Source: Candidatus Micrarchaeota archaeon
Lineage (GTDB): Archaea; Micrarchaeota; Micrarchaeia; Norongarragalinales; SBBD01
Assembly (NCBI GenBank): GCA_038046605.1
Contig: JBBSVW010000023.1
Coordinates: 53,870-74,711, forward strand
Direction: 5' to 3'
Length of the DNA stretch: 20,842 nt
Shown piece after piece: positions 4,074-14,206 of this stretch. The stretch's first letter is position 1. Every line of letters begins with the position of its first letter. The notes under the pieces are model-generated. The model did not search any database. It saw only the letters and a list, made by a program, of their open reading frames with translations, and had not been told where the DNA came from. Made by a program: the position numbers and the translations under genes.

Positions 4074-5333
4074 TCAACTTATTATTTCTTTCAGTGCAAC
4101 AGTCGCATAGCTTCCGGAAGGGAGGGAGAATTTTAGCCGTATTTTCCTCTTTCCGGCCTTCTCATATTCTTCGCAGGCAAAATCCTTCAGGTAAACGAAA
4201 TTGGGGCGGAAGGCTCCCTTGGAGTTCAACTCCGGCGTGCTTTTCATCACGAATTCCTCCTTTTTGATTTTCTCCTTTGCCAGAAGTTTCTCCTCATCCT
4301 TCGAAAGCACGGTTTGGAAACCGATTAATTTGCCCAAAATTACGGCACGATTTTTGGCTATTAGTTTTTTGACCTCATTTGCCTGTACCCTTGATTCGAT
4401 TTTCAGGGGCATCTCAACTTTTGGGAACCCAAGTTCATTCAATTCGCAATAATAATCCCCTATTGCCGGCTTTAGCAGCTTTCCCTTCTTAATGCGCGCC
4501 TCCAATATTTTATTGAACAGCTCGCTCTGGTAGGCGTGGATGAACAATAATTGCAAGCTCCTATGCAATTTCCGAAATGCGCCAAGGAAATCATTTGGGT
4601 TTTTTGAGAGATGGAAGAGCATATACTGCTCATGCCTGAGATAGCGCGGGAAAGTGTTTAGCGCCTCATGGAAATTCATGCTCTTTTCCAGAAGCCTCCT
4701 TGCCTTCGAGGAGGATTCATCCTTTTCACCCTCATCGGTGTAGCATAGGTAGTTTAGAACAGCCTCCTTGAATTTGCCTTGAATTAGGAATTTGCCAACA
4801 GTTGCGGTATTCTTCCTCGCGCTCCCAAACCGCTGGTCGCCAAAAGGGTTGGGAATTGCATAATTTTGCTTTTTGAGCATAGTTTCGATTCTTTCGGCGC
4901 TTAAATGCTTGAATTGCGCGCTTCCAATATTTTCTTCGGTAAGAATGATGGTAAAGCGGTTGCCGGAAAGCGCCCCCAATTTCACCTTGTCATTTGCAAT
5001 CCATGCCCCAAGTATTTTCATATCCCTAATGCCCAGGGATTGAAGGCGTTTTGGCTCAACTGCGAATGCGCTGCAAAGCTGGGTGGTGATTGCGTTCCTA
5101 TCCTTGTTCCCGGCGAAATTGATGCGGCTGGAATTGATGTGCAGCCTATCGGCAATTTGCCGGATTGCATTGCTTGTAGTCCAGAGCTTTTTTTGCAACG
5201 CAAATACGGTGAAGAAATTGTTCGTGCTATGAAGCTTTTCATCGGGGCGCAAATAGGGCTTGTCGAGCTCGATCACATCCCCGTTCAATGCGATCTCCTC
5301 TACGATGAAATCTTCAGGTGCGAATTTAAACAT
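4074..5333 (-). CDS. truD: tRNA pseudouridine(13) synthase TruD/Pus7
   Basis: PEDFIVEE, FAGNKDRNAITTQ (catalytic Asp), GNRF, PNPFGDQRFG, HAYQSELFN, FSLPSGSYAT. Confidence 0.96.
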   Translation of the reverse strand: MFKFAPEDFIVEEIALNGDVIELDKPYLRPDEKLHSTNNFFTVFALQKKLWTTSNAIRQIADRLHINSSRINFAGNKDRNAITTQLCSAFAVEPKRLQSLGIRDMKILGAWIANDKVKLGALSGNRFTIILTEENIGSAQFKHLSAERIETMLKKQNYAIPNPFGDQRFGSARKNTATVGKFLIQGKFKEAVLNYLCYTDEGEKDESSSKARRLLEKSMNFHEALNTFPRYLRHEQYMLFHLSKNPNDFLGAFRKLHRSLQLLFIHAYQSELFNKILEARIKKGKLLKPAIGDYYCELNELGFPKVEMPLKIESRVQANEVKKLIAKNRAVILGKLIGFQTVLSKDEEKLLAKEKIKKEEFVMKSTPELNSKGAFRPNFVYLKDFACEEYEKAGKRKIRLKFSLPSGSYATVALKEIIS

Positions 5334-5356
5334 ATTGAAGATTTAATTCGCCAAAG

Positions 5357-5413
5357 TAAATAAAGGGGTAGAGGCGACTACGAGTAGGGGAGTTACTCCC
5401 CTAGAGGTGTCAA
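5357..5413 (+). mobile_element. Hairpin element E1 (IS200/IS605 right-end-like, non-autonomous)
   Basis: GAGT + perfect hairpin AGGGGAG-TTA-CTCCCCT + AGAGGTG + TCAA; homologous to 9825-9940. Mobility is inferred. Confidence 0.55.
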
Positions 5414-5416
5414 TTG

Positions 5417-5448
5417 CTTCAGGTTGGAACTTGAACATTGAAGAATTA
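5417..5448 (-). repeat. Diverged second copy of the truD 5' end (direct repeat of 5312-5344)
   Basis: CTTCAGGTTGGAACTTGAACAT vs CTTCAGGTGCGAATTTAAACAT (18/22), then TGAAGA(A/T)TTA. Encodes MFKFQPE vs MFKFAPE. Confidence 0.8.
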
Positions 5449-5459
5449 GGCTATTTCAG

Positions 5460-5467
5460 ATTAAAAA
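5460..5467 (-). promoter_or_regulatory. TATA-like box upstream of the orphan truD start copy
   Basis: Minus strand TTTTTAAT about 22-29 nt upstream of the ATG at 5438 (leaderless spacing). Confidence 0.4.
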
Positions 5468-5472
5468 CCGCT

Positions 5473-5991
5473 TCAAATGTCATATTTTGCCAGGTATTTG
5501 ACGCCAAAATCAGTCGAATACCAAAACCAATCCGCAAAAGCGTGGGATCCATACGCTATGGCTGCGAGAACTGCAATTTCCAACGAGCCTGAAAAAACGA
5601 ATGCAAACATTGCAAAAAGTAGAATGTACTCGATTGACAAAAGCCATTTCCCCTTTGAATACCATTCTTTCCTGAATTCCGATCGTGGATGCTGCTTATA
5701 CTCCGGCGGCGAATAATACTGCGATTTGAGGAAAAGCAAAAGGAGGATTGCGGCAATTCCGGCAAAAAGGCCCATTGCCCAATCTCCGGAACTCGTAAAA
5801 CCAAAAACATAGGCTGCGCCAAATGAAATTAGGGCGGCACCGATGAATTCCCATTTCTCATGCGTAAAATCGGGGAAAAGGCCGCCGAATACCGCAAGTA
5901 TCCAGACAGGCAGGGAAAGCTCGACATTCATTGCAGATGCACTCCACATGACAAGGAGGAAAGTTAGGATGAAATGCGACAGCGGGCCCAT
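5473..5991 (-). CDS. Putative membrane-bound metal-dependent hydrolase (YdjM-like)
   Basis: N-terminal H (LSHF), GGLFPD..H, C-terminal SHAFAD (HxxxD); multiple TMs. Confidence 0.6.
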   Translation of the reverse strand: MGPLSHFILTFLLVMWSASAMNVELSLPVWILAVFGGLFPDFTHEKWEFIGAALISFGAAYVFGFTSSGDWAMGLFAGIAAILLLLFLKSQYYSPPEYKQHPRSEFRKEWYSKGKWLLSIEYILLFAMFAFVFSGSLEIAVLAAIAYGSHAFADWFWYSTDFGVKYLAKYDI

Positions 5992-6050
5992 AGTAAGTAA
6001 TACTCACGGAAGGGTTTTTTTAACGTAGGGGATAACACTTGTTGGATAGC

Positions 6051-7598
6051 ATGGCAGCATACAAGCCAACAGGCAAGGATTGGGTATGGGCGCACAGGAG
6101 GAACATGTCCCTCCTTCAGGTGAACATATTTGCCGATGGGCTCGAAGGGAAGGGCTATTTCCCGGCAGTCAGGTTCAACCGCAAAAATTACCTGGCAAGG
6201 ATTGTGAAGGGGGAGGGCGCCTACATTTACTACGATAATGGCGAGCTGAAACGAAACACACAAGCATTCCATAGGGATATGACAAATGGCAGGTGCACAC
6301 CCAAAAAATTAAGGAGGCTGTCGGAGAGGTTTTTTTCCGATGCGAAAATTGCGGTTGGAGAATTTAGGGGAAACCTTGCGGATATGGATAATGCCGCATT
6401 GCTTTTGCGATTCAAAAAATTCAGGCGGGCAATGACAATTGGCCCGATAATTACAGTGCAATTGTGGGGCATCGAATCTTGCTGGGATCCAAAATTTGCC
6501 CTCCCAAAATTCCTTGAAAAACGACTTGGAAAGTTGGGGAAGGCAAATGATTACCAAAAATGCATCGAAATTCTTTCAGCCGGGGAGGGGAAGAGCATTC
6601 CGCTGCTGGAAAGGGAAAGTTTCCTTTCAATTGCATGCAGGATGAAAAATAATGATGAGGTAAGAAAAGCAATCCAAGCCGGTTCTGCAACCAAAATCAA
6701 GTCAGCATTTGAAAAATATCCCAAGCTGGAGAGGGATTTTAGTAGGCACATTAACGAATTCGCATGGACAACAACCGAATACCAAAGCGAGCCATGGGGC
6801 AGGGGAAAATGGCGGTTAGCAATGCGCCGTGAAATGGGAAGGGATTGCAAAAATGAGCTGGATGAACTTTTGCAACGCCAAAAAAATGCAGTCGAGGAAA
6901 ACAGGAAGTTGTTGAAAAGATTGCAGCCTCCTGAAAAAATAATGCGCATCCTCCTTAACCTTGAGGAATTCATCCGGCAGAGGGATTGGGCAAAGGGGGA
7001 ATATTCGGCAATTTACCTGAAATGGCAGCCGCTTCTTAACGAATTGGCACGGAGGATGGGATGCAGGGTGGAGGATGTTACTGCGCATACCCTGGATGAA
7101 ATTGAAGAGTTCCTAGAATCAGGCAAGAATATCCCTGGAGAGGAAATTGCTCAAAGGAAACGGGGCTGCATTGTTATTTCCATTGGTAAGCCGTTCCATG
7201 CTCATTCAAATGGGCTATTGGAAATTGAAAGGAAGGAAAAATTGGCACCCGAAGGAATTGAACCAAAAAACCGAACCGAAGTATTTGGAATTGTGGGTTC
7301 GTCTGGCTATGCAAAGGGAAGGGCAAGGGTGGTAAGGGCGCCCGAGGAGATTGATTTGGTCAAGAATGGGGAAATCCTAATCACGTACATGACCACCATG
7401 GAATTCACGCCGGTTTTCAAGAAAGTTGCTGCGGTCGTGACAGACGAAGGCGGGCTCTCATCACATGCGGCCATTGTAAGCAGGGAATTCGGGCTTCCGT
7501 GCATTGTTGGCACAAAGCGGGCAACTAAAGTTTTCAAAACGGGGGATATCGTCGAGGTAGATGCAAGAAAAGGAATTGTGAGGAAAATCACCCCTTAG
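6051..7598 (+). CDS. PEP-utilising enzyme mobile (His) domain protein with large helical N-terminal region, no recognisable ATP-grasp domain
   Basis: C-terminal AKGRARVV..GEILITYMT..AAVVTDEGGLSSHAAIVSREFGLPCIVG. ATG at 6051. Confidence 0.85.
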   Translation: MAAYKPTGKDWVWAHRRNMSLLQVNIFADGLEGKGYFPAVRFNRKNYLARIVKGEGAYIYYDNGELKRNTQAFHRDMTNGRCTPKKLRRLSERFFSDAKIAVGEFRGNLADMDNAALLLRFKKFRRAMTIGPIITVQLWGIESCWDPKFALPKFLEKRLGKLGKANDYQKCIEILSAGEGKSIPLLERESFLSIACRMKNNDEVRKAIQAGSATKIKSAFEKYPKLERDFSRHINEFAWTTTEYQSEPWGRGKWRLAMRREMGRDCKNELDELLQRQKNAVEENRKLLKRLQPPEKIMRILLNLEEFIRQRDWAKGEYSAIYLKWQPLLNELARRMGCRVEDVTAHTLDEIEEFLESGKNIPGEEIAQRKRGCIVISIGKPFHAHSNGLLEIERKEKLAPEGIEPKNRTEVFGIVGSSGYAKGRARVVRAPEEIDLVKNGEILITYMTTMEFTPVFKKVAAVVTDEGGLSSHAAIVSREFGLPCIVGTKRATKVFKTGDIVEVDARKGIVRKITP

Positions 7599-9090
7599 AA
7601 ATTATTCTTATTGTTCCAATATTGGCGTTAACTTCTATGAGATCCCCATCTTTTAGGATTTTGGTAGCAAATTTTGTTTGGAGCACCGTAGGTGTTTTGA
7701 ACTCCCTTGCAACCGTAGCCGCATGGGATATAAGGCCGCCCATATCCGCCACAATTGCGGCAGCGAGCTTCAAGTATTGTGTGAGCTCAGTAGAAATATC
7801 GTGAGATACCAAAATATCGCCCTTGCGGAACTTATGATGGTCTTTTTGAGAACGAATTATTCTTACAATTCCGATTACTTTTCCGGGATAAACTGCAAGG
7901 CCCCTTAATTCTTGGTTTTGAGCTATCACTTCCTTGCGGATTAGCTTTTTTGCCATTAAGTATGCGCTTTTTCCCGAATAGATGGTTATTTCCCCATTTA
8001 CCATAAGGACTGCTCGCTCACGCATCCTTTTCAGCATCATATTCCTATCTGCCTTCCTTTTTTTCTTGAGCAGGTAGGCAATTTCATCTGGCACAAGGTA
8101 TTGCACCTCAAGCCAGGTAAGCCCCAGCCGTTTTCCAATTTCAGTCATTAAGGGGCGCATTAGGAAAAGTGCATTCACCATGATTTCCTTCGTATGGTCA
8201 AGCACAATTGCCATTTGCTGCATTGCTTGGACCAGCGCTTTAAATTTTCCATTTGGATGCTTCAAGAAAAAGCGCTTTTGTTCGTTTAGGACCGCCCTTA
8301 ACATTGCCTTTGGAGATTTGGATAACCCCACCATGCCTTCAAAATTTGCCATCCTCTTTCTTAGTTGCAAACGGTAATCGTTTACTACCCATGGATCCAT
8401 CATATATTCCATATGGAACCAGCCGCATTCCTTTTCGAGTCGATGTAGCCCATCGATTGCGTTCTTTGAGGAGATGAAACGGTCAAACTCCCTAGTTGCG
8501 GGCTTTCTTTTTGAAAAATGGCCGATGAATTCGGATTCAATTTCCCAAAATAACTGCTCCTCCTTTTGGGGCAGGCTCTGGCGGGGCGGAACAAGAAGCA
8601 TTGAGGAAAATTTCAATAGGCTTTGGGGGTCAGCACGTTCTTTACGGCTAAGCGTTTTTTCCAATTCTTGGTTGAAATAGTCTTTCATGTTTTGGGCAAT
8701 CAACCCAAAAATCATGGGTGGGTGGTTCAGGAAGGCACGGCGGTATGCAAACTCGAGTTCGTAAATAAGCTGCGCATTCGAAACGCCCCGGTACGATTTA
8801 TTTAGCCTTTTTTGAAGTTCGGCAAATGGTTTTTGATAGAAAGCAATCAAATTCTTGAAAAATCCCTCCGAATATCTACCTTTTTCAAATTCCCGCAATT
8901 GTATTTTGAGAAGTTTACCAAATTCGTCCTCCCTTAGGCAAAAGGCGGCCAATTCTCCCCTAGCATGGGTGAAAAAATTATGGAATTTGACATCAGTACC
9001 TGGCATCTGCTCATTCATAACAAATGCCGCGCCATAATTCGAAAAAAGCGGCTTGTTGCGGGAGCCTATATCAAAATACTTGGCAGCCAT
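7588..9090 (-). CDS. Second PEP-utilising mobile (His) domain protein, convergent paralog
   Basis: C-terminal PGKVIGIVRII..GDILV..AAIVADMGGLISHAATVAREFKTP. Shared mid-region motif (GWFHMEY..DPW vs AWTTTEY..EPW); 11-bp 3' overlap. Confidence 0.85.
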   Translation of the reverse strand: MAAKYFDIGSRNKPLFSNYGAAFVMNEQMPGTDVKFHNFFTHARGELAAFCLREDEFGKLLKIQLREFEKGRYSEGFFKNLIAFYQKPFAELQKRLNKSYRGVSNAQLIYELEFAYRRAFLNHPPMIFGLIAQNMKDYFNQELEKTLSRKERADPQSLLKFSSMLLVPPRQSLPQKEEQLFWEIESEFIGHFSKRKPATREFDRFISSKNAIDGLHRLEKECGWFHMEYMMDPWVVNDYRLQLRKRMANFEGMVGLSKSPKAMLRAVLNEQKRFFLKHPNGKFKALVQAMQQMAIVLDHTKEIMVNALFLMRPLMTEIGKRLGLTWLEVQYLVPDEIAYLLKKKRKADRNMMLKRMRERAVLMVNGEITIYSGKSAYLMAKKLIRKEVIAQNQELRGLAVYPGKVIGIVRIIRSQKDHHKFRKGDILVSHDISTELTQYLKLAAAIVADMGGLISHAATVAREFKTPTVLQTKFATKILKDGDLIEVNANIGTIRIISKG

Positions 9091-9279
9091 AAAGGATCAA
9101 TAATGAATAAATTAGGAGCGTATTTAAGCTTATTTTTCCTAATAGCTTAGCTCTTGGTTCTAATAGCTATGGTTAGTATCAATATGCTTGCCAAAGTGAT
9201 TGATGGGAATTGGAGATAGGATTTTAAGAGCAAGGATTAATTCTTCTTTGCAAATGAACTTAATTGCTAAAGTGGTAAT

Positions 9280-9810
9280 ATGGAACTCCTCCCGATCTCA
9301 AAATCAACCGCAGACGCGCTTACGAAGAACGCATCCAGCCTCCTTAAGCAGGTGGAAAAGAAGGGCGAAGTCAAAATCAAGCTCAATAGCGATGGAAATT
9401 TGGAGCTTGACGGGGAGAGTGGCAACATCTGGGCAGCTGAGCAGGTGATCCGTGCGCTTAATTTTGGCTTTTTGCCACAGCAGGCTTTTAAACTTTTCAG
9501 CGATAACTACTTCCTCGAAATCATAGACCTAGCCCTTGTGCTCTCAAACCAAAAGGCAGTTGATAGATACAAGGGGCGCATAATTGGCGCAGGTGGGAAG
9601 GCAAAGGCAACGCTTACAGAGATCACCGGCGCCTACCTTGCCATTTCGGGCAACAAGGTTGCGGTCCTTGGGGAGTACGATGATTTGCAGCTTGCAAAAG
9701 AGGGGATTTTGCGCCTTTTGGAAGGCTCGCCGCATACGGGAGTATACAATTATCTGGAAAAGAAGAATAGGGAAAGGAAGTACAACATGAAGGGAATTGA
9801 ACGAAAGTGA
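9280..9810 (+). CDS. KH-domain RNA-binding ribosome biogenesis protein (Dim2/Pno1/Krr1 family)
   Basis: IRALNFGF.P..AFKL, RYKGRIIGAGGKAK (KH GxxG), LLEGSPHTGVYNYLE; upstream of top6B as in the conserved archaeal cluster. Confidence 0.9.
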   Translation: MELLPISKSTADALTKNASSLLKQVEKKGEVKIKLNSDGNLELDGESGNIWAAEQVIRALNFGFLPQQAFKLFSDNYFLEIIDLALVLSNQKAVDRYKGRIIGAGGKAKATLTEITGAYLAISGNKVAVLGEYDDLQLAKEGILRLLEGSPHTGVYNYLEKKNRERKYNMKGIERK

Positions 9811-9824
9811 AGGAATTTTATTCA

Positions 9825-9940
9825 TAAATAGGAAGGGGAGAGGCGACACGAGTGGGGAACGCTTCCAGAACCTTCGAGGTTCTGGGCGTGCTAAGAACCC
9901 TCGGGGTTCTGACGCAACGTAGTTGCCCCATAGGTGTCGA
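9825..9940 (+). mobile_element. Hairpin element E2 (homolog of E1 with an expanded two-hairpin apical insert)
   Basis: TAAATAGGAAGGGGAGAGGCGACACGAGT-GGGG...CCCC-ATAGGTG-TCGA. Inner hairpins CCAGAACCT/AGGTTCTGG and AGAACCC/GGGTTCT. Confidence 0.55.
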
Positions 9941-9987
9941 AGATTCGGGAAAGGAAGTACAACATGAAGGGAATTGAGCGCAAGTAA
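9939..9987 (+). repeat. Diverged second copy of the KH gene 3' end (direct repeat of 9762-9810)
   Basis: 44/49 identical with a 31-bp perfect core (9947-9977 = 9770-9800). Encodes KIRERKYNMKGIERK* vs KNRERKYNMKGIERK*. Confidence 0.95.
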
Positions 9988-10089
9988 TTTGTGAAAAAAC
10001 GGAAATAAAAAAAGGAAGGAATTAAGAACAACTAGTATACTCATCAAAACCTGCAAAAATTAGTCATAAAGCATTAGTGGTTTTACCAA

Positions 10090-13618: not shown

Positions 13619-14206
13619 TTAGACGCCAAGCCCGGCCCGAACAAAGCTCACGGCAACCGCAATCAGCAAAAGGCCCATCACTCTCGAGCTTATTTCGACG
13701 ATGTTTTGGCCAAATAGCTTCAATAGCTTTTGCGAATTGAGGAGGATTATCCAGTTTGCAAACAGCGCGGCGCCGGCGGCAACCAGGGTAAGCAGGATGC
13801 CATCGGAGGCCGCAAGCACTATCACGCTCGTAATGACCCCCGGGCCGGTGATGAGGGGAACGCCGATGATGGTCGCCGCAACGTGGTAATCCTTCGTTGC
13901 TTTTTCCTTCTTCTCCCAGCCGAAAACCAGTTGTGCGCCCAGGATGAGAAGCACTCCGCCGCCGGCGATCTTGAAATCCGAGAGGCTGATGCCGAAAAAA
14001 TGCAAAATAGTGTTTCCGAAAAACAGGAAAAGCAAAACTACGCCGGTGGCGACCATGAGCGCCTGGTTCGCGGCCTTGATGCGGTCCCCGGATTTGAATT
14101 TTGCGGTCAATGAGAGGAAGACCGGAATGCTCGCAAACGGGTCCATGATGGCGAACAGCAGCACGAACGCCTGCAGGAACGGCCCAACGGGAAAGGATTC
14201 GAACAT
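13619..14206 (-). CDS. MarC-family integral membrane protein
   Basis: LFAIMDPFASIPVF, FKIAGG, PLITGPG, RVMGLLL. Confidence 0.92.
   Translation of the reverse strand: MFESFPVGPFLQAFVLLFAIMDPFASIPVFLSLTAKFKSGDRIKAANQALMVATGVVLLFLFFGNTILHFFGISLSDFKIAGGGVLLILGAQLVFGWEKKEKATKDYHVAATIIGVPLITGPGVITSVIVLAASDGILLTLVAAGAALFANWIILLNSQKLLKLFGQNIVEISSRVMGLLLIAVAVSFVRAGLGV

Follow-up and report, generated by a model that had tools for sequence, protein, structure and literature searches.

The window analysed here, a 20,842-nt stretch of a Micrarchaeota genome of 1.64 Mb (G000), carries two short hairpin elements, E1 and E2, each lying between two copies of the end of a core gene. The first is found at truD, which encodes tRNA pseudouridine synthase D (4074–5333, minus strand; ORF list, Pfam TruD 335.8 bits). 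The working truD start falls within the first copy of the duplicated sequence (X1, 5312–5345), which is contiguous with the gene and comprises a leader of ~12 nt, the start codon and the first 7 codons. There follow, on the plus strand, the A/T-rich 5' arm of E1 with its TAA stops (5346–5364; family arm consensus) and a 47-nt core hairpin with covarying helices and the 3' end GGTGTC (5365–5411; regex and nhmmer family search). The second copy (X2, 5417–5448), placed by flank alignment and by its match to the truD start of relatives, is a truD start that has been displaced, looks older and adjoins the gene's native upstream region. The two copies are identical at 27 of 34 aligned positions, and the local alignment of left and right flanks scored 37 (p = 0.0015 against 1376 left/right flank pairs drawn from different loci of the same genome). 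By translation, a 31-codon upstream ORF (5343–5438, minus strand) begins at the displaced start codon, runs through E1 in reverse complement and terminates 9 nt short of the ATG of the working truD, in a frame identical to that of truD.

The second element lies at the 3' end of a gene encoding a KH-domain protein (KRR1/PNO1-like, dim2-type; 9280–9810, plus strand; ORF list, Pfam KH_KRR1_2nd and KH_PNO1_2nd). On the same strand, the first copy is made up of the last 15 codons of the working gene and its TGA stop (9762–9810), and the second is a displaced gene end with a TAA stop of its own (9939–9987). Repeat search aligned 47 nt of the two at 91% identity (9762–9808 and 9939–9985, spacing 177), and none of the 1376 null pairs reached their flank alignment score of 78. 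Between them are a degenerate 5' arm (9811–9834), assigned from its position, its A/T-rich, stop-rich sequence and, by eye, its likeness to the family arm, and a 104-nt core hairpin that also ends in GGTGTC (9835–9938; family search; RNA fold −53 kcal/mol, z −4.0). The apical loop of this core houses a nested double-hairpin repeat module (~9858–9925) with 7 further genomic matches (blastn, E at most 0.001) and matches in relatives.

A preliminary description of this DNA had recognised both elements as homologous and co-oriented, which holds. Their limits needed correction to the cores given above, each preceded by an arm, and what had been read as a differing apical hairpin is, in E2, a separate multi-copy module. 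The description had also raised the possibility of chimeric assembly. For E2, an independent 206-nt Logan contig (run X2) covers 9771–9976 with zero differences and thus places KH copy 1, the element and copy 2 on one molecule; for E1, two Logan contigs abut at 5383/5384 within the repeat, with one duplicate copy on each.

A family of structured elements with duplicated insertion sites

E1 and E2 are members of one family with at least 38 copies in the host genome, where a regex search gave 39 matches, 38 of them usable, and nhmmer gave 97 at E ≤ 1, 49 of these below 1e-4. The insert is non-coding, 45–135 nt long, and consists of an A/T-rich, stop-rich 5' arm (~20 nt) and a two-helix structured core (~46 nt) with a fixed 3' end, ..GGTGTY. 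Across 58 cores, 95.5% of cells are paired compared with 85.9% in shuffles, and the covariation score was 0.337 versus 0.153, a value that 0 of 500 shuffles reached and that slid controls (≤0.118) did not approach. Pair 13:55, for example, is GC in 40 cores, AU in 17 and CG in 1, and pair 17:52 is AU in 48 and CG in 9. A symmetric 3x3 internal loop separates the two helices, and 25 U-G pairs at one core position define the strand of the element.

The family is narrowly distributed. With a 25-nt core pattern allowing at most 3 mismatches, for which the reversed control gave 0 matches, we found the element in all 11 genomes of family f1 and in none of the 30 from sister families. Among 185,579 species genomes, a degenerate pattern had 41 matching stretches, spread over 10 assemblies; nine of these assemblies are titled Candidatus Micrarchaeota or Norongarragalinales, and the tenth, with 7 of the 41 stretches, is titled "MAG: archaeon isolate". 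Rfam gave no match at gathering score in the window and none at E ≤ 1 in 5300–10000, and we found no publication describing this element.

The layout noted at both loci, in which a working gene end is followed by the element and a second copy of that end, is general: a direct duplication of the insertion site brackets 48 of 104 copies, at loci in 11 assemblies including one 7-contig genome. Flank similarity was significant (p < 0.01) for 16 of the 38 copies in G000 and for 32 of 66 matches in ten relatives, so that the proposal of a duplicating element, which the preliminary description had made to depend on further copies with duplications of their own, stands. In the other 56 copies no duplication was detectable; the 22 nt upstream of these share the arm consensus, and the arm is kept in most family copies. 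Duplications are 14–99 nt long (median 49; at least 30 nt in 39 of the 48 pairs and shorter in 9), and the second copy begins no more than 8 nt past the core in all 48, directly at its end in 36. The duplicated sequence differs from locus to locus. Identity within pairs forms a continuum from 100% to 70%, with 20 of 48 at 94% or above and 9 at 100%; these identical pairs show that the duplication is, at birth, copied from the resident target.

Most element loci are species-specific, the insertion site being empty in 4 of 5 relatives at the KH gene and in 8 of 9 informative relatives at an ATPase gene. At three loci different species have the left boundary of the duplication in common, with element subtypes that differ and within-species copies that resemble each other. 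Elements are also found in series: in 11 of the 48 cases a resident element lies directly 3' of the second copy, and one array (G000:C73:31340–31860) holds up to five gene-end copies with a different element subtype after each.

Divergence between copies and the origin of recoded gene ends

In 36 coding pairs we counted 76.5 synonymous and 39.5 non-synonymous differences, giving a pN/pS of 0.127 and a synonymous share of 0.66, where equal rates would give ~0.5 and 0.31, respectively (binomial p = 1.8e-14 under a drift model). The ratio was 0.089 once 5 doubtful frames were removed and 0.10 in the 19 pairs below 93% identity, while the 17 younger pairs showed 6 synonymous and 6 non-synonymous differences. 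At the locus C34, 12 of 19 codons differ synonymously and one amino acid differs. The differences in old pairs therefore resemble those left by purifying selection, and the earlier contention that they are too synonymous for a decaying duplicate is borne out.

Outgroups were available for four loci, and at three of them it is the working copy that has changed. By-eye comparison places the relatives' codons in the displaced copy at truD, C90 and C34, with the working copy derived; at truD, the displaced copy corresponds to the gene start of all four informative relatives (G001–G004) and the copy on the gene-body side is derived. The KH locus has two polarisable sites, both derived in the displaced copy and one of them non-synonymous. 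Judged from these comparisons of sequence, spare copies look like preserved older versions of gene ends rather than decaying junk.

The explanation we favour, to which we assign roughly an even chance of being correct, is that the element is a non-autonomous, lineage-restricted mobile hairpin that generates a long target duplication, and that later recombination replaces the working gene end and leaves the spare as a fossil. The element would be copied into new sites with its fixed 3' end and a variable 5' junction within the arm, and the same event would re-copy 14–99 nt of resident target, so that the site would be present on each side of the element. In a tightly packed genome an insertion would be expected to survive only if one gene remains intact, which is why the duplicated stretch usually contains the stop or the start of a gene or the end of a tRNA. 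We infer the chemistry of insertion entirely: it may be carried out by host replication or repair, through template switching or break repair at arm microhomology, with no element-specific transposase. Microhomology at the arm is seen, for example, at G000:C55:21479, and native target ends resemble the arm at p < 0.05 in 9 of 33 cases and at p < 0.2 in 20 of 33, relative to a control of random genomic words rather than matched gene ends.

Synonymous recoding would, on this favoured explanation, arise after insertion, as the working copy is swapped for diverged working alleles through equal or unequal homologous recombination with related lineages, the highly conserved element providing a nearby block of identity and the displaced copy merely keeping the older allele. 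The presence of RadA in G000, a 90.7%-complete genome in which MutS was not found, adds to the plausibility of recombination, and in another DPANN population homologous recombination is described as concentrated around transposons (PMC5905446). Several observations weigh against the scheme. We found no donor allele among the relatives compared, which are only 66–80% identical at these loci, or in a metagenome scan, which returned species-level relatives only. Recombination between sequences 15–27% apart is normally inefficient, and the polarity of the KH locus is opposite to that expected. In addition, species that share a left boundary but differ in subtype would require element turnover or refreshment of the spare copy, and a duplication was detected at fewer than half of the copies (48 of 104).

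One possibility raised in the preliminary description is that the element itself supplies a recoded gene end. The polarity of truD fits this proposal, but it fits later recombinational replacement equally well, and the identical and near-identical pairs speak against the proposal. In its fullest form, which we regard as rather unlikely, the mobile unit would be a foreign gene end together with the element. On reaching another lineage, this unit would enter the corresponding gene through homology at the gene end and would be joined at its other side through the fixed 3' end of the element; the incoming end would then take over as the working end, with the native one pushed downstream. The derived working copies and native-like displaced copies at truD, C90 and C34, the resemblance of both copies to working alleles, the array of up to five gene ends with distinct subtypes and the fixed 3' junction would all follow. 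However, with 9 of 48 pairs identical and 20 at 94% or above, most recent events copy resident sequence; such a unit could not colonise a new gene, yet most loci, the KH and ATPase sites among them, are species-specific; orthologous loci carry different subtypes; and neither the relatives nor the metagenome scan yielded a donor. It is similarly doubtful, though conceivable, that the element goes beyond parasitism and serves as a portable, near-invariant identity block with a defined 3' end that lets diverged Micrarchaeota lineages exchange core-gene termini, and spreads by carrying replacement ends.

We consider it improbable that the copies diverged in situ, by ordinary mutation following a long duplication, perhaps at a raised rate close to the hairpin and with selection acting as a filter on the working copy, while the displaced copy is young or slow to change. 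The continuum of identity and the equal numbers of synonymous and non-synonymous differences in younger pairs are consistent with such a process, as is the finding, by eye, that 5 of 6 derived synonymous changes in the C90 working copy are transitions from G/C to A/T; across the whole set of pairs, 107 sites are weak in the working copy and strong in the spare, versus 80 in the reverse direction (p = 0.057). The overall transition bias is weak, however (73 versus 54), the synonymous excess, seen for instance at C34, is far from that expected at equal rates, and the working copy would have to change many times faster than the spare.

Search for a mobiliser

No transposase, integrase or reverse transcriptase goes with the element. 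The lack of such genes was first claimed for the window; in the whole of G000, profile searches gave no match to RVT_1, TnpB or Phage_integrase (PF00589). Of the 11 genomes with the element, 5 have Y1_Tnp, as do 9 of the 30 without it; G002, which has 20 pattern matches, and G003, which has an identical 52-nt pair, lack it. The G000 gene (C9:24297–24650, 148 aa, 88.8 bits) is ~1.1 kb away from a long copy of the element, and another in G008 lies ~1.3 kb from a copy. This proximity, together with a hairpin whose U-G pairs point to a defined, selected strand, would suit a REP/PATE-like repeat that the Y1 transposase of the genome, of IS200/IS605 or RAYT type, mobilises in trans. We nevertheless judge such movement highly improbable: the gene belongs to the IS200 type (NF033573, 88.2 bits) rather than the RAYT type, scoring 21.8 bits with NF047646, for which the cut-off is 80; its distribution is patchy; and 48 of 104 copies carry a target duplication, which Y1 transposition is not known to make. 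That the gene ends of two strains were stitched together across the repeat is scarcely credible, since, even though the genome was assembled from a metagenome into 106 contigs and the Logan contigs at E1 end inside the element, one contig spans E2 without a difference, the architecture recurs at 48 loci in 11 assemblies, and 9 pairs are identical.

Significance and relation to known systems

These loci constitute a natural data set for insertion with long target duplication, with about 50 dated events in 11 genomes, for a process previously known from single restriction-modification insertions in bacteria. They indicate that in DPANN archaea a gene-end copy left behind by an insertion can remain codon-perfect even as its working counterpart turns over. 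As each locus carries an internal reference allele, allele replacement, or local hypermutation, becomes directly testable in uncultivated, ultrasmall archaea. In annotating these genomes, duplicated gene tails, short ORFs that run through an element, and contig breaks are explained by the elements. Should the terminus-exchange reading be true, each exchange would push the prior terminus downstream, and the loci would preserve earlier working alleles in their order, as many as five in the C73 array.

Several known classes share features with the element. Miniature inverted-repeat elements (MITEs) of archaea and bacteria, such as the SM elements of Sulfolobus and Correia elements, are likewise small, non-autonomous, multi-copy and mobile. 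The element described here differs in lacking terminal inverted repeats (its ends are an A/T-rich arm and GGTGTY, and its inverted repeats are the internal helices), in having duplications that are long and variable rather than short and fixed, and in that no parent IS with matching ends was found. The REP/BIME/REPIN repeats of bacteria are also short, structured, multi-copy extragenic hairpins with a conserved stem, lineage-restricted and located at gene ends; they are associated with a RAYT, which is not found here, and REPs are not known to come with 14–99-nt target duplications. PATEs derived from IS200/IS605 insert beside a fixed short target word without target duplication, whereas long duplications are present here and, by eye, no fixed word lies left of the arm. 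A diversity-generating retroelement (TR/VR), marked by a reverse transcriptase and by adenine-specific differences between its repeats, does not fit, given the lack of RVT_1 and the frequency of A in copy 1, 76 of 232 mismatches compared with 707 of 2247 aligned bases. An archaeal bulge-helix-bulge intron has two 3-nt bulges on opposite strands with a 4-bp helix between them; by eye, the core instead has the symmetric internal loop.

Integrative elements at tRNA or gene 3' ends, which duplicate an att site and bring a replacement end, share the order of working end, insert and displaced copy, as well as tandem arrays. Their integration depends on a site-specific recombinase and a single fixed att site, whereas the duplicates here are locus-specific with no constant core across loci, and the search of G000, which covered tyrosine recombinases, gave no PF00589 match. 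In Rhs and CdiA toxins, successive C-terminal tails are displaced downstream as arrays of orphan tips, and displaced gene tails are kept as an array here too; the toxin tails are different toxins with immunity genes, while those described here encode nearly the same peptide of housekeeping genes.

The closest likeness is to insertion with long and variable target duplication, reportedly described by Nobusato et al. in 2000, for which we know of no accepted mechanism. As characterised by Furuta et al. (2010, PMC2853133), such duplications are direct, variable in length, over 30 bp, tens of bases long and often over a gene 3' end, and the insert holds no transposase or integrase. The duplications here are similarly direct, variable, tens of bases long and at gene ends, with no mobility gene in or beside the insert. 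Known inserts of this kind are kilobase-sized restriction-modification gene sets, mostly in naturally competent bacteria and seen as single events, whereas the insert described here is a small, non-coding archaeal hairpin present in dozens of copies, whose old duplicates have diverged synonymously.

Two elements in the window and the family they belong to

The window (C23:53870-74711 of the source genome, G000) contains two copies of the element, E1 and E2, both on the + strand as the preliminary description had reported, and each consists of an A/T-rich 5' arm followed directly by a hairpin core. E1 lies just outside the start of truD (4074-5333, - strand), with an arm of 19 nt (5346-5364) and a core of 47 nt (5365-5411). 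E2 follows closely on the stop codon of a KRR1/PNO1-type KH gene (9280-9810, + strand), with a degenerate arm (9811-9834) and a core of 104 nt (9835-9938); both cores end in GGTGTC. The apical region is indeed the sole large difference between the two copies, and it is due to a separate double-hairpin repeat inside the E2 loop (approximately 9858-9925), which has seven other matches in the source genome (G000) at E at most 0.001 and also occurs in relatives. A similar insert occupies the loop of an element copy on G000:C60 (contigs of the source genome are written in this way). Between E1 and E2 lie convergent paralogues with PEP-utilising mobile domains (6039-7598, + strand, and 7588-9090, - strand) that overlap by 11 nt.

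Using a two-anchor regular expression, we found 39 copies in G000 (1.64 Mb, 106 contigs, 90.7% complete) and used 38; the 39th, on the minus strand of G000:C73 (approximately 13865-14005 in reverse-strand coordinates), is broken by an N run and stands outside all counts. A profile built from 14 copies gave 97 nhmmer hits in this genome at E<=1, in part halves of long variants, and 49 below 1e-4. Short copies measure 45-53 nt and long variants 89-135 nt, the latter carrying additional hairpins behind the first helix strand or within the apical loop, and most copies share a 5' arm of ~20 nt ending in TAA-rich words. One copy (G000:C100:2540-2599) lies ~500 nt upstream of radA (C100:3097-3813), and a paralogous flank with another copy is found on G000:C5.

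The element appears to be confined to a narrow lineage. A 25-nt core pattern (up to three mismatches) matched all 11 genomes of one family, namely G000 and ten relatives (numbered from G001), and none of the 30 genomes that represent ten sister families in the same order, while the reversed pattern, used as a control, gave zero matches. In a scan of 185,579 species genomes, a degenerate core pattern matched 41 stretches in 10 assemblies. Candidatus Micrarchaeota or Norongarragalinales appears in the titles of nine; 7 of the stretches come from the tenth, whose title reads simply 'MAG: archaeon isolate'. Rfam gave no match at the gathering score or at E<=1, and we found no description of the element in the literature on Micrarchaeota/Norongarragalinales and DPANN repeats, supplementary files apart, or by terms within PMC12892359.

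We assessed structure in an alignment of 58 distinct cores, made up of E1 and 57 short cores of relatives to the exclusion of other G000 copies. Standard pairs filled 95.5% of the cells of a two-helix structure, compared with 85.9% in shuffles, and the covariation score was 0.337 compared with 0.153; neither value was reached by any of 500 shuffles. Because the copies are related, this control overstates significance, and the stronger structural evidence is the slid controls, in which covariation was at most 0.118, together with the three pair types at one position. The outer helix displays full compensatory change, one of its pairs being GC in 40 copies, AU in 17 and CG in 1, and another AU in 48 and CG in 9. 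At a further pair, U-A and U-G occur in 25 copies each; as U-G corresponds to a C-A mismatch on the opposite strand, selection acts on the strand shown, whether as RNA or as single-stranded DNA. Energy by itself does not single out E1 with its arm (RNA fold z -1.66, with 15 of 200 shuffles folding equally well); the value for E2 is z -4.02.

Other structural identities were considered and rejected. By eye, an arm-to-core pairing taken from the fold lacks covariation across copies. We also dropped the idea that the 5' G-run, which co-varies with the apical stem in some subfamilies, forms a purine triple helix with it: four copies violate the rule (again by eye), and subfamily descent accounts for the others. 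BHB introns, ribosome hopping and integron attC sites were likewise discarded. In alignment A1, the core 5' segment (G-run plus TAGAGG, columns 2-11) recurs as a direct, not inverted, motif in the 3' stem strand (C-run plus TAGAGG, columns 42-51); variants of the 5' G-run tend to accompany apical-stem variants there, and a single A-to-G in the core 5' segment is accompanied by an A-to-C in the internal loop in most copies.

Duplicated gene ends beside the element

Comparing the 90 nt to the left of each core with the 90 nt to its right, against a null of left/right pairs taken across different loci, we detected flank duplication at p<0.01 for 16 of 38 copies in G000 and for 32 of 66 regular-expression hits at 60 loci of the ten relatives, a few of these hits being nested, alternative matches to a single copy. 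Across the 48 pairs, the second copy always starts no more than 8 nt past the last base of the core (0 nt in 36), and the first stops 0-58 nt short of the core, with the arm, whole or truncated, filling the gap. Duplications are 14-99 nt long (median 49, mostly 20-69); identity is complete in 9 of the 48 pairs, at least 94% in 20 and below 85% in 17.

By our own frame assignment, the duplicated part is the 3' end of a co-oriented gene in 27 pairs and the 5' end of an opposite-strand gene in 9. The other 12 are tRNA ends, non-coding stretches or inner array units without a script-anchored frame; by eye, six of them are tRNA ends (C26, C9:23058 and loci L111 and L114-L116), among which is an intron-bearing tRNA that ARAGORN did not call. 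Opposite-strand tRNA 3' ends adjoin several copies (G000:C26, C9:23058, C106, C82 and C55:12455), two of which duplicate 20-37 nt of the tRNA end. At the 5' end of truD, a 31-codon ORF (5343-5438, - strand) opens at the displaced start, crosses the reverse complement of E1 and ends 9 nt ahead of the true start codon in the same frame; its counterpart at G000:C90 seemingly ends at the true start codon in an ATGA overlap (by eye). Such upstream ORFs at 5'-end insertions could provide translational coupling across the element.

An element of a different subtype directly follows the second copy in 11 of 48 cases, and at G000:C73:31340-31860 a gene for a pilus or secretion ATPase ends in five successive tail copies, separated by four different elements, with frame and stop codon kept in all five.

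Orthologous sites were occupied in some relatives and empty in others. The KH site is occupied in G002, with a left boundary differing by 6 nt, and empty in G001, G003, G004 and G005; the ATPase site is occupied in G003, with the left boundary found in G000, and empty in 8 of 9 informative relatives; and the C90 site is empty in G002, G005 and G006 and filled in G001 and G003 at an identical left boundary. The C34 site is occupied in G003 with a different boundary, the truD site in G002 with no recognisable second copy, and G006 and G003 have a common boundary at one further gene. At shared sites the element subtypes differ and both copies within one species have species-specific residues in common, which argues for turnover at occupied sites. 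New elements may enter beside resident ones, and recombination between copies may remove units.

Recoding of older pairs and its origin

The old pairs show that both sequences evolved as working gene ends and that the working copy, joined to the gene body, is usually the changed one. Synonymous recoding, claimed from the two loci of the window, proved real across the family: for the 36 pairs with a frame taken from the adjoining long ORF, the Nei-Gojobori method counted 76.5 differences at 277 synonymous sites and 39.5 at 1127 non-synonymous sites (pN/pS 0.127). If the working copy were constrained and the spare copy beyond the element drifted, a pN/pS of ~0.5 and a synonymous share of 0.31 would be expected; the share actually came to 0.66 (binomial p 1.8e-14). 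The ratio was 0.089 after removal of five doubtful frames, 0.10 in 19 pairs below 93% identity, 0.092 at 3'-end cases and 0.227 at 5'-end cases. Drift could account for the 17 younger pairs, in which just 6 differences are synonymous and 6 non-synonymous (p 0.18). Of 19 codons at G000:C34, 12 show a synonymous difference and a single one changes the amino acid.

Mismatches are not adenine-specific (copy 1 has A at 76 of 232, and A makes up 31% of aligned bases), which rules out a DGR-type process. The weak/strong polarity (107 vs 80, p 0.057) and the transition polarity (73 vs 54) are too weak to support a claim of deamination or hypermutation. By fifths of the duplicate, mismatches number 16, 3, 14, 14 and 21 in 31 pairs at least 85% identical, and 12, 28, 46, 48 and 30 in the 17 older pairs; local alignment trims the ends of the duplicates.

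Polarity was read by eye over short stretches. In truD, relatives carry the displaced copy's second codon and glutamine codon (G001-G004, four of four informative; the G005 contig ends), which makes the working copy derived; the displaced copy runs on into an upstream sequence whose alignment with G001 is recognisable. In a conserved block at G000:C90, six or seven sites of the displaced copy agree with relatives, and the working copy has derived synonymous states, mostly G/C-to-A/T. C34 leans the same way (four sites vs one, with several ties). At the KH locus both polarisable sites are derived in the displaced copy.

Our leading explanation, to which we give about even credence, has two stages. 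The element would insert with a long duplication of the resident target; diverged alleles from relatives would then replace the working end through homologous recombination, and the spare copy would remain as a fossil. RadA is present in G000, MutS was not found in this 90.7% complete genome, and in another DPANN population recombination has been reported to cluster around transposons (PMC5905446). The C-terminal 249 aa of the G000:C73 ATPase, used as a query against metagenomes, retrieved 66 loci, with no close strain and no donor allele among them, the nearest being species already in our comparison set (92% and 83% protein identity).

The first idea put forward for these loci, that the element itself carries in the new, recoded end, would fit a derived working copy; young pairs are identical, from which we conclude that the resident target is the template of the duplication, and we regard the idea as unlikely. 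Somewhat less likely still is change in situ at a far higher rate in the working copy.

Insertion and comparison with known systems

At inserted elements the 3' junction is constant and the 5' junction variable, the latter lying where arm-like sequence occurs in the target. For example, the identical pair at G000:C55:21479 has a 6-nt word at the end of the target that is found again before the portion of the arm that was retained. Compared with random genomic words, rather than matched gene ends, native target ends were arm-like at p<0.05 in 9 of 33 cases and at p<0.2 in 20 of 33. When a resident element is present, the new duplication stops exactly at the first G-run of that element. RVT_1, TnpB and Phage_integrase had no match in G000 (90.7% complete). 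From the fixed 3' end, the 5' end set by microhomology, the long and variable re-copied stretch and the lack of an enzyme gene, we infer that insertion probably proceeds by copy-choice or break repair with host enzymes.

A Y1 transposase is an improbable inserting enzyme. G000 does encode a single Y1_Tnp, of IS200 type and not RAYT; the gene is found in just 5 of the 11 genomes with the element and 9 of the 30 without it, and it is absent from G002, with 20 pattern matches, and from the 7-contig G003, which holds an identical 52-nt pair. The G000 gene (148 aa; locus L031, G000:C9:22797-26150) is ~1.1 kb from a long element copy, with a 277-aa ORF between them, and that copy adjoins an apparent tRNA gene end not called by ARAGORN.

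An assembly artefact is scarcely credible: one independent Logan contig spans 9771-9976 with zero differences, so the E2 arrangement is not an assembly chimera. No Logan contig skipping an element, as an empty-site allele would, was seen in four runs, two of which (X3 and X6) had too little coverage to be informative; the single joint observed, 5389 to 9865, connects E1 with E2 and looks like a repeat artefact.

REP/RAYT repeats, MITEs, att-duplicating integrative elements and Rhs/CdiA displacement arrays each have one trait in common with the element, which lacks defining traits of each. The closest described process is the 'insertion with long and variable target duplication' of bacterial restriction-modification genes (PMC2853133).
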